A stretch of DNA of 26,568 bases from Promethearchaeota archaeon. Its GTDB lineage: Archaea; Asgardarchaeota; Lokiarchaeia; Sigyniarchaeales; SOKP01. The stretch spans positions 1 through 26,568 of the forward strand of contig JAFGOA010000195.1 in NCBI GenBank assembly GCA_016926735.1, given 5' to 3'. Position numbers and translations under genes: made by a program. The notes under the pieces are model-generated. The model had not been told where the DNA came from, did no database searches, and saw nothing but the letters and a program-made list of their open reading frames with translations. Positions 13,408-15,830 of this stretch are shown here, piece after piece. Within the stretch, counting starts at the first letter, position 1, and the number at the start of each line of letters is the position of its first letter.

Positions 13408-14118
13408 TTATCCGACTCTCATTTTTTGTTTTATTCTAAAATTCTTTTTTTCTTTTGTCTTTTTTCTTTTTTCTCTTAATTCTTTTTCCATTGTAAAATC
13501 TTTTTGACAGATAGATTCTAACGGACAAATATTACATTTAGGACGAAAAGGTTTGCAAATTTGTTGTCCGAATTTAACAAATAATCTGGAAAATCTTAAC
13601 CAATTTTCTTTTGGTATTAATTCTTTTAAAGCAATTTCACTCTGTTCGGGTCTTTTTGTTTGAATCCATCCTAGTCGATTTGGAATACGATGAATATGTG
13701 TATCCACAGTTATTGCTGGAATCTTAAAAGCAAAAACAAGAACACAATTAGCTGTTTTTGGACCTACTCCTGGTAGTTCTACTAATTCTTGAAAATTGTT
13801 AGGGACTATACCATTATATTTTTTTATTAAAATATTTGAAATATCAATAATTCTCTGAGCTTTTACCCTATAAAATCCGATACTTTTTATTATATGTTCA
13901 ATATCTCCTAAATTTGCCGTAGCAATTAATTCTGGGGTATTATATCTCTTAAACAAATCTTCAGTCACTTTCTCTGTCATTATATCTTTAGTTCTTGCAG
14001 ATAAAACAGTAGCTATTAATATTTTAAATGGATCTGAACCTTTTTCTTCTAATTTCCCTAAGTTTGATTTACCCTTTATATTATTTTCGACTTTATCTAA
14101 AATTTCTCTGAAATTCAT
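13408..14118 (-). CDS. nth: Endonuclease III (HhH-GPD glycosylase/AP lyase with 4Fe-4S)
   Basis: LIATVLSARTKD, LPGVGPKTA, VDTHIHRI, C-x6-C-x2-C-x5-C (CKPFRPKCNICPLESIC). Confidence 0.96.
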   Translation of the reverse strand: MNFREILDKVENNIKGKSNLGKLEEKGSDPFKILIATVLSARTKDIMTEKVTEDLFKRYNTPELIATANLGDIEHIIKSIGFYRVKAQRIIDISNILIKKYNGIVPNNFQELVELPGVGPKTANCVLVFAFKIPAITVDTHIHRIPNRLGWIQTKRPEQSEIALKELIPKENWLRFSRLFVKFGQQICKPFRPKCNICPLESICQKDFTMEKELREKRKKTKEKKNFRIKQKMRVG

Positions 14119-14142
14119 AAGATTCTCTAATTTTATGATGAT

Positions 14143-14430
14143 CCCTCAAGAATACAACTACCTTCAGGGAGGTAATGAATTGAGCTAAATTAAAAATTAT
14201 CAAAATTCACTAAACATTCAATTTCTCATTCCTTTTAAACCATTCTATTTTAATAGTTTAATAAGGAAATTCTAATTATAAAGGTGAATTTCTTATTGCA
14301 TGAACCCTCTGTGAACGAGAAATCATTCCTAATACAATGGAATGGTTTTCTACGATAAACAGGCCAATCCGTAAGAGAAGAGATTGTATACTCGTAGGGA
14401 GCCATGATCTTCAGGTCGTGTGTAGTTCAT
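14143..14430 (+). mobile_element. Non-autonomous IS200/IS605-family element (288 bp, no tnpA/tnpB)
   Basis: Left end CTCAAGAATACAACTACC-TTCA-GGGAGGTAATGAATTGAG and right end GGGAGCCATGATC-TTCA-GGTCGTGTGTAGTTCAT. Both subterminal hairpins carry C-TTCA-GG. It is preceded by ATGAT, with no TIRs or target duplication. In-silico removal restores ...FEKESS-stop in the flanking gene. Confidence 0.75.
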
Positions 14431-14450
14431 TCCTTCTCAAATACATATAT
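14300..14450 (+). ncRNA. Candidate TnpB omegaRNA/reRNA scaffold with flanking guide (14431-14450)
   Basis: Stems 14319-14329/14339-14349, 14350-14355/14392-14397 enclosing 14365-14369/14382-14386, and 14403-14409/14414-14420. ATGAAC 14300-14305 is complementary to the terminal GTTCAT 14425-14430. TTATAAA lies at 14276-14282. Confidence 0.5.
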
Positions 14451-15830
14451 TTTTCTTTTTACAATTTGTCCTTTTTTTGTATCTATTATTGAAAATAGTT
14501 TTGATTTATTAAATTGTAGAATTTTATTCGATTTATTTACAATTCTTTTAGCTGTAATAAGTGGTATCGGTTTAAATTGATTTTTTCTTGCTATATTTTC
14601 AATATCAATACGTAGATCATGAGAATCATCAAGAATATTTATCACTGGTGATACAATACAGATTCTTGATTCAGGTTTTAACACTTTATAGGATTCTTTA
14701 AATATAGTTTCATATAAAGGCTGAAGTTTTACTTCCATTAATTCAATACCATCAGAATAATATGGTTTTTCATTAAAAAAAGGTCCTAAATCAGGCTCAG
14801 TTACTATTCCATCAAAAAATCCTTCTTTATATATTTTAGATAAATTCTTTATATCTATAGTTTTAAATTTATGACCAATATTTGGTATTGGCGGTAATTC
14901 TAATTCATTCTGAAGCCATTTAATATTTTCTATAGTATTATCTATTTTCTTTTTACTAATATCTGAACCAAACATTTGAAAATCTTCAATTAATCCAAAT
15001 AATGCAATAGTACCATTACCTACAAATGGATCAAGTATCTTTTTTTCCTTTCTACCTTCAAAAATATTGAGAAAATTTAACATTATTATTGCTAATTTTG
15101 GAGAAATTGCACTTTTGAATTCTCTTTTAGGTCTTTCTTCATCTATTTTCTTTTTAAAATTTGGATCATCTACAGTATAAGTTCTTCCAATATAAATTCC
15201 TTCTTCAGTTATTCCAATCACAATTTCTGCTCTATTTGGTTTGAGTAGTTGATATTTAATCACATGATGAGGAAATATTGGATTTAAATTACCAGAATCA
15301 ATATTTTTTTGAGGATATTTATAATATAGAGCTTTAATTGCTCCTTTTTCTTTTAAAATTGTTCTAATTCCTTTATTTAAAAATGGAAGTAAATGTTTTA
15401 ATACAACCTCTTTGTAGTAAATATCATCATATAAATTAGGATAAATTGAGTTCGCAAAGAAAATATTTTCGTTCTTAATATTTGGAAATATATCATCTAA
15501 AATAGTAACAAGTTCATCTTTAATTTTTTGTCTTTCCTTTTTAATTTCATTAAATTTAATTGTTTTAATTGGAAATGATTTTTTTAATGTTTGATAATTT
15601 ATGAAGCTGGAAACTTTTGCTATTTTTTGTATACCTCCTAAATAATATTGAAGAGTTTCTAATTTATCAACATAAAATTTATCATTTATAAGATTACTAA
15701 ATTCAACTATTGCAATATTAGAAGAATAATCGATTATCTTTCCTTTAAAAGGAGTACTTCTTAGGCATATATCCAGTTCTGCTAAGGAGAGTTTCCAATT
15801 ACTTCCAAGAATAAATATAAATTGTACCAT
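14427..15830 (-). CDS. Trm11-like SAM-dependent RNA methyltransferase (tRNA m2G10 type)
   Basis: N-terminal FILG...LSLAEL, ISPKLAIIMLN, ILDPFVGNGTI, GSDIS, DGIVTEPDLGP. Confidence 0.8.
   Translation of the reverse strand: MVQFIFILGSNWKLSLAELDICLRSTPFKGKIIDYSSNIAIVEFSNLINDKFYVDKLETLQYYLGGIQKIAKVSSFINYQTLKKSFPIKTIKFNEIKKERQKIKDELVTILDDIFPNIKNENIFFANSIYPNLYDDIYYKEVVLKHLLPFLNKGIRTILKEKGAIKALYYKYPQKNIDSGNLNPIFPHHVIKYQLLKPNRAEIVIGITEEGIYIGRTYTVDDPNFKKKIDEERPKREFKSAISPKLAIIMLNFLNIFEGRKEKKILDPFVGNGTIALFGLIEDFQMFGSDISKKKIDNTIENIKWLQNELELPPIPNIGHKFKTIDIKNLSKIYKEGFFDGIVTEPDLGPFFNEKPYYSDGIELMEVKLQPLYETIFKESYKVLKPESRICIVSPVINILDDSHDLRIDIENIARKNQFKPIPLITAKRIVNKSNKILQFNKSKLFSIIDTKKGQIVKRKIYVFEKE

Follow-up and report, generated by a model that had tools for sequence, protein, structure and literature searches.

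A protein-free IS200/IS605-type element with a covarying omegaRNA-like scaffold in a Promethearchaeota genome

The window analyzed here, a stretch of 26,568 nucleotides from a Promethearchaeota genome, contains a 294-bp protein-free element of the IS200/IS605 type (14137-14430) that resembles palindrome-associated transposable elements (PATEs) and MITEs. The element is a deletion derivative of a solo-tnpB (IS1341-like) element of approximately 1.46 kb, of which it retains the left end together with some 140-170 nt from the opposite end. The stretch flagged in the first-pass annotation (14260-14450) is the right half of this element, which comprises the omegaRNA scaffold, together with 20 nt of flanking DNA. 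Taken together, the observations described below are most compatible with a gene-less PATE whose covarying scaffold likely gives rise to an omegaRNA that is loaded in trans.

Identity and boundaries of the element

The flagged stretch is located in the 308-nt gap between two minus-strand genes, one encoding a HhH-GPD glycosylase-like protein (13408-14118) and the other a protein with a weak methyltransferase match (14427-15830). As the first-pass annotation had stated, there is no ORF in this stretch beyond two chance ORFs of 51 aa and a remnant of the TnpB C-terminus that is interrupted by an in-frame TAA (14356-58) and ends at the ancestral stop codon TAG (14395-97); the TnpB remnants in other copies contain 2-6 stops each. 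The accompanying claim that the element descends from a tnpB element and has lost the protein is borne out, and its right half is homologous to the 3' end and right end of tnpB loci. A search of the middle part (14185-14252) against the full-length tnpB element finds no significant similarity, and this is also the least conserved part of the gene-less element.

The boundaries are defined by comparison of filled and empty sites in the window's own assembly (G000; 3.88 Mb, 238 contigs, 26% G+C) and three congeners (G001-G003). The site of the window is empty in the closest congener (locus L052, G003:C36), where flanks that are 93-95% identical to those of the window are joined with the pentamer only. 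Read without gaps, this comparison places the element at 14137-14430 and reveals no target duplication; the pentamer in the empty site is TTGAT, compared with TTTAT in the window. In the second clean pair (G000:C69 filled, G003:C155 empty), TTTAT is retained in the empty site. The same pentamer directly precedes all 15 aligned independent insertions in the four genomes, and the right flanks that follow the terminal GTTCAC are unrelated among the aligned copies. The filled/empty pairs formed with G001 and G002 have junctions too diverged to decide boundaries. The empty sites and aligned insertions, which put the end of the element at 14430, also uphold 14431 as the start of the guide in the first-pass annotation. 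The putative 20-nt guide (14431-14450) occurs once in the genome and matches 20 of the 20 bases that adjoin TTGAT in the empty site of G003.

The two ends of the element are asymmetric and contain subterminal hairpins. The left end (LE) and the right end (RE) are common to the elements in C61, C63, C111, C112, C36, G001:C1 and G001:C50. The LE subterminal hairpin (14157-62/14167-72) is degenerate in the window copy, with two mismatches, and is followed by a ATGAATTGAG box; the terminal GTTCAT of the window copy is GTTCAC in most of the other copies. Because there is no target duplication, the ends are asymmetric and hairpinned and the target pentamer lies on the 5' side, an origin from IS200/IS605 appears to fit the sequence better than an origin from IS607-type elements, which employ a serine recombinase.

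Table 1. Features of the element and its immediate flanks (positions in the window)
Feature	Position	Strand	Details and source
TTTAT target, TAM-like pentamer	14132..14136	+	stays outside the element, abutting its 5' side
Whole element	14137..14430	+	filled/empty comparison with G003:C36; near-full copies C69, C78 and congeners G001-G003
Left end common to tnpB-bearing elements	14137..14184	+	LE of C61, C63, C111, C112, G001:C1
T-rich box of the TTTTAA type	14231..14239	+	approximately 25-30 nt upstream of the first stem; conserved as T-run plus TAAR in PATE copies
P0, 5' closing stem-loop	14260..14297	+	specific to the PATE lineage
TnpB C-terminal reading-frame remnant	14287..14397	+	tblastn match to the C36 TnpB C-terminus
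P1 hairpin	14306..14320	+	stem 14306-09/14317-20; loop GTGAAC 14311-16
P2 hairpin, 9 bp	14321..14347	+	arms 14321-29/14339-47
P3 long helix	14348..14399	+	14348-55/14392-99; encloses P3b 14365-69/14382-86
P4 terminal hairpin, TTCA loop, 7 bp	14403..14420	+	arms 14403-09/14414-20
3' tail GTTCAT, element boundary and pseudoknot partner of the P1 loop	14425..14430	+	
Flanking DNA, putative guide	14431..14450	+	opposite strand holds the last methyltransferase codons

Fold and covariation of the scaffold

The stems listed in the first-pass annotation are all present in the sequence, namely, 14260-14272/14286-14297, 14319-14329/14339-14349 and CTACGA (14350-55)/TCGTAG (14392-97); the enclosed helix CAATC (14365-69)/GATTG (14382-86) and the TTCA-loop hairpin can be read directly as well. 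The model that was tested across the family consists of five helices (P1, P2, P3, P3b and P4) and one long-range pairing. These stems covary, both in 21 copies from the window's genome and in 20 protein-free copies from the four congeneric genomes. Among the 21 copies of G000, 84.6% of the cells pair, compared with 34-45% when the partners are slid. The same alignment contains 60 double-sided changes versus 27.6 in shuffles, a count reached by none of the 500 shuffles; RNAalifold independently finds P1, P3 and P4 in these copies. For the 20 gene-less copies, with P0 added to the model, 94.3% of the cells pair versus 32-46% after sliding, and 23 double-sided changes compare with 7.8 in shuffles; significance judged by shuffling is overstated here because these copies are related. 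The slid controls preserve the relatedness of the copies and still differ strongly. As judged from these alignments, the helices are kept by compensatory changes, even in copies that no longer code for a protein.

Among individual helices, the strongest covariation is observed in P4, where all seven pairs show changes on both sides in the wider family. P0, in which 14260-14272 pairs with 14286-14297 to form 12 bp with one bulge, is paired in 92.1% of the cells and has three pairs changed on both sides among the 20 PATE copies. The P1 stem is paired in 85.7% of the cells in the wider family and in 98.8% in the PATE copies. In P2 (96.1% paired in the PATE copies), one pair changes from A-U to C-G in six copies of the wider family, and in P3b a C-G pair is replaced by U-A in four PATE copies; pairing amounts to 89.8-96.9% for P3 and 83.8-91.0% for P3b. 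Pairwise identity within the PATEs is 85-89% for P1-P3, 49-66% for the middle and 78% for the terminal hairpin. The conservation of the internal P1-P3 segment would be hard to explain through transposition signals alone.

In the long-range pairing, the P1 loop (14311-16) can bind the final six bases of the element, with 81.7% of the cells paired in the wider family. The first-pass annotation had instead assigned the role of the 3'-end partner to ATGAAC (14300-05). This hexamer is indeed complementary to GTTCAT (14425-30); however, its pairing is specific to the PATE subfamily and holds in 60.8% of the cells family-wide, so that it was downgraded in favor of the P1 loop.

The minimum free energy (MFE) fold of 14256-14430 on the plus strand reproduces the listed helices at -43.4 kcal/mol (z = -2.45), a value that 2 of 200 shuffles equal; the z-score of the minus strand is -1.69. 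For the whole intergenic stretch, the respective values are -2.34 (+) and -0.15 (-). Certain pairs are G.U almost universally in the PATE copies (14349.14398 in 20 of 20, 14323.14345 in 18 of 20), which fits an RNA read from the plus strand. The argument of the first-pass annotation that the G-U pairs favor this strand is in agreement with these findings, considering that several positions are G.U in nearly all copies and that the plus strand folds better than the minus strand. The window copy itself is slightly defective: a C.A mismatch breaks the outer pair of P1, the last base is changed from C to T, and there are the two mismatches in the LE hairpin.

The stretch has no match in Rfam 15 at the gathering score, and at E-values up to 10 it yields chance-level matches alone (csRNA, snoRNAs and a CRISPR repeat, at E 2-7). 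A scan of the stretch for tRNA and tmRNA found none. The scaffold is not a chance feature, since it is a repeat with 29 covariance-model matches in the genome.

Copies of the element and the cognate TnpB

BLAST against the G000 assembly identifies two near-full copies with 90-91% identity (C69 and C78), several diverged full copies and about 20 copies of the right 140 nt only. The covariance model, which was built from 21 right ends of G000, finds 29 copies in this genome; overall, the copy counts range from 19 to 29. For at least 13 of the 29 copies, the LE motif lies just 190-425 nt upstream, so that they are protein-free; six are located at contig ends. The element family is present in all three congeners, and the right end extends beyond this genus to further genera within the family and order. 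In G002 (3.4 Mb), more than 130 remnants of the right end and the TnpB C-terminus are detected, many of these at contig ends, which amounts to a massive expansion compared to the 29 matches in the window's genome.

The lack of a tnpB locus with the same right end had been named beforehand as the observation that would speak against the first-pass annotation. Such loci do exist, as fragments in G000 and as intact genes in the congener G001. In these loci, the right end coincides with the 3' part of tnpB, including approximately 37 codons at its end. For example, the copies at the ends of contigs C36, C191 and C17 directly follow tnpB zinc-ribbon fragments (PF07282). The tnpB frame crosses the scaffold and ends at a TAG in the P3 3' arm, approximately 35 nt before the end of the element; a location of the scaffold at the tnpB 3' end, which is typical of omegaRNAs, is seen in C36, C17, C191, L060 and L065. 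The 3' parts of tnpB in C36 and C17 are intact, and that in C191 has a frameshift within the zinc ribbon. The sole body of this tnpB family assembled in G000 is in C61 (G000:C61:2-1051, minus strand; 350 aa) and contains two in-frame stops (TAG and TAA). The assembly breaks inside this tnpB family, with left and right ends found at contig ends (C61, C36, C191, C17, C63, C111 and C112). Intact tnpB genes of other families in G000 (C151, C172, C43, C188 and C50) were considered as the cognate and rejected, as none of them adjoins a match to the scaffold model.

The congener G001 possesses intact elements of approximately 1.46 kb with the same LE and RE that encode a 434-aa TnpB (P0001; L060:148-1449). 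This protein contains the Pfam domains HTH_OrfB_IS605, OrfB_IS605 and Cas12f1-like_TNB and is similar to the ISDra2 TnpB structures over residues 7-389, with an E-value of about 4e-14. P0001 retains the RuvC-I aspartate (FDVGI) and the RuvC-III DRD motif, together with the cysteines of the zinc ribbon. In the phmmer alignment, the ISDra2 segment IIGTEHL, which we take to hold the RuvC-II glutamate, falls on IIVGKLKV of P0001, without a glutamate. There is a conserved glutamate near RIDES, just before the TSQ motif of P0001. This glutamate, within the I(D/N)ES motif, may be the alternative catalytic residue of the rearranged type, on which nuclease activity would then depend. In large branches of TnpB, the RuvC-II glutamate is replaced (by glycine in the largest branch) and an alternative glutamate compensates for the loss (PMC10691335); judging by the motifs, the TnpB of the present family looks like a member of these RuvC-II-rearranged branches. 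A Trm5/TYW2 protein encoded nearby has its nearest matches among Promethearchaeota clusters, which is a lead to the host lineage.

Predicted function and mobilization

In the published model of IS200/IS605 elements, the right-end RNA, with a guide taken from the flank, directs TnpB to cut the scarless donor joint (TAM plus flank), and the element is restored by recombination (10.1101/2023.03.14.532601). PATEs often encode omegaRNAs, which would depend on TnpB of other elements for use in trans (10.1101/2023.03.14.532601), and standalone omegaRNAs have reportedly been shown to work in trans (PMC10691335). By analogy, the plus strand of the scaffold would be transcribed, perhaps from the TATA-like box near 14231-39, with the transcript running into the flank, so that the guide of the resulting omegaRNA would start at 14431. 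Because the scaffold and the host operon are read from opposite strands, the RNA would need its own promoter. The T-rich box may serve this RNA as an archaeal TATA box, and five consecutive T residues (T5) follow 20 nt downstream of the element; in a genome with 26% G+C, these two features represent weak evidence. The TnpB produced by a full-length copy would then load the RNA of the gene-less element in trans, and together they would cleave the empty donor joint that excision leaves next to TTTAT, with the element restored by recombination.

The P4 hairpin is probably also bound by the transposase at the right end and would thereby act as a signal recognized by a Y1 TnpA that is provided in trans. 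A search for Y1 TnpA (PF01797) in G000 and G001 found none; the domain is present in G002 and G003, beside a different tnpB. The tnpA- and tnpB-containing IS605 elements of the congeners are L069 (G002:C109) and L071 (G003:C396). Their LE hairpin (approximately 1325-1375 in L069), GCCACG...CGTGG followed by ATGAATGG, closely resembles P4 and the ATGAATTGAG box, and a similar ATGAAT box comes after it. Given the resemblance of this hairpin to P4, the TnpA of the congener IS605 elements is a plausible mobilizer of the gene-less copies in trans.

Alternative explanations

The principal alternative, to which we assign a minor although still appreciable probability, is that the element is an inert relic, i.e., a decaying deletion derivative devoid of an RNA function, with helices that reflect the recent spread of a few master copies and the requirements of single-strand transposition for hairpins read by TnpA. 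The scaffolds of the PATEs are on average 89% identical and many pairs never vary, P4 is similar to the transposase-binding hairpin of a tnpA-bearing IS605 element, the window copy carries the small defects listed above, and an intact cognate tnpB is not assembled in this genome; all this is compatible with a relic. However, conservation is highest in the interior (P1-P3, at 30-125 nt from the tip) rather than in the terminal hairpin, the double-sided changes in the protein-free copies exceed both the shuffled and the slid controls, and P0, a stem found in the PATE lineage only, closes the scaffold and covaries. A more far-reaching scheme, which we regard as improbable, is that the gene-less copies, which outnumber tnpB several-fold, are selected as a dispersed guide library for the RuvC-II-rearranged TnpB. 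Under this scheme, their movement in the genomes without Y1 (G000 and G001) would depend on an unknown mobilizer, possibly TnpB-dependent, or else the copies would be put to use by the host, e.g., in the control of split operons. If true, the guide library would point to an unknown mobilizing activity or to a host-level use of some copies.

Still less credence can be given to recruitment of the element as a host regulator, either as an antisense RNA against the 3' end of the methyltransferase mRNA or as a terminator or promoter between the methyltransferase and HhH-GPD genes. The element does part two genes with a spacing of 8 nt in the empty site, the insertion swaps the last two codons and provides a stop codon, and the guide is complementary to the 3' end of the mRNA. 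Yet the insertion is missing in the closest congener, with its 93-95% identical flanks, the same family occupies about 29 unrelated sites in G000 and many more in the congeners, and the place of insertion is sufficient to account for the antisense relation. Least tenable of all is the first-pass annotation in its exact form, with ATGAT (14135-39) as the TAM, a left end that starts from 14140 and a scaffold closed by the pairing of ATGAAC (14300-05). It is true that ATGAT precedes GATCC in the window copy and that the ATGAAC/GTTCAT helix appears in the MFE fold of this copy. However, this TAM is three bases off, as the two empty sites and the 15 insertions give TTTAT (14132-36), and ATGAT was rejected because the empty sites keep TTTAT or TTGAT and nothing of the GAT/CAT that follows. 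Positions 14137-39 correspond to CAT, CAC or nothing in other copies, and the helix with 14300-05 has the lower family-wide pairing given above. A gene-less PATE that supplies an omegaRNA in trans remains the most probable reading. Weighing against it are the in-frame stops in C61 and the frameshift in C191, the small defects of the window copy, the requirement for a separate promoter, the absence of the canonical RuvC-II glutamate and the negative search for Y1 TnpA in G000 and G001.

Relationship to known systems

The fold is real and conserved, and elements of this kind have already been published. PATEs were described in archaea in 2011, first in Haloquadratum walsbyi (PMC3119063), and PATE-like elements that encode omegaRNAs are known in Geobacillus stearothermophilus (10.1101/2023.03.14.532601). 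The element of the window shares with PATEs a length too short to code and the absence of a conserved ORF, the lack of terminal inverted repeats and of a target duplication, the subterminal hairpins, the insertion beside an oligonucleotide of 4-6 nt, the ends common to tnpB elements and the origin through core deletion. The disrupted C-terminal coding remnant also has a counterpart, in the PATE HqIRS71 (PMC3119063). In contrast to the published PATEs, the present element belongs to another host lineage, is unrelated in sequence and has a scaffold that covaries across four genomes.

With the standalone omegaRNAs (OMEGA; Altae-Tran et al. 2021, via PMC10691335), it has in common a mobilized scaffold without a nuclease or transposase, copies with effector sequences elsewhere in the genome and a putative guide from the flank; those RNAs are active in trans by experiment, whereas here the case is made from sequence and structure, and an intact effector is assembled in a congener only. 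Compared to ISDra2 TnpB with its right-end RNA (PDB 8bf8, 8exa, 8h1j), the protein is homologous, the predicted RNA likewise shares sequence with the tnpB 3' end and terminates its scaffold at the right end, and the putative TAM is likewise a T-rich pentamer (TTGAT in ISDra2; TTTAT here and TTGAT in one empty site). The differences are that the RNA shows no detectable sequence similarity and has no Rfam model, that the canonical RuvC-II glutamate appears to be replaced, and that the tnpB frame reaches much deeper into the scaffold, to within approximately 35 nt of the element end. The sotRNAs of IS1341-type tnpB from Halobacterium salinarum (PMC4615843) are also archaeal sense-overlapping ncRNAs at the 3' end of a solo tnpB; those were detected experimentally within full tnpB genes, whereas the RNA of the window is predicted in a gene-less copy.

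Although the current understanding of such elements is unchanged by this case, it adds a well-delimited family with defined boundaries, a TTTAT target, a scaffold backed by covariation and an intact 434-aa TnpB apparently of the RuvC-II-rearranged type. The scaffold, TAM and compact TnpB can be tested together as a nuclease system, the practical value of which is modest. The excess of gene-less over gene-bearing copies represents a natural data set on guide RNAs that are kept without the protein.

Insertion sites and the host operon

In the empty site of G003:C36, only 8 nt separate the methyltransferase stop codon from the start codon of the HhH-GPD gene, so that the two genes form one operon. 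The insertion widens this spacing to 297 nt, removes the last two methyltransferase codons (Ser and Ile) and supplies a TGA from the last bases of the element (14427-29). The downstream gene now must be read either through the element or from a promoter inside it. The antisense orientation of the guide relative to the end of the methyltransferase gene, pointed out in the first-pass annotation, is confirmed for the final codons and is a trivial result of the insertion site. Approximately 11 of 19 copies in G000 have convergent gene ends within 110 nt or so of the right end, and in three copies the stop codon of the gene falls in or at the element end (the right ends concerned are those in C13, C58, C22, C69, C4, C212, C164 and C11). 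This distribution suggests that AT-rich gene 3' ends that hold TTTAT are preferred as insertion sites.
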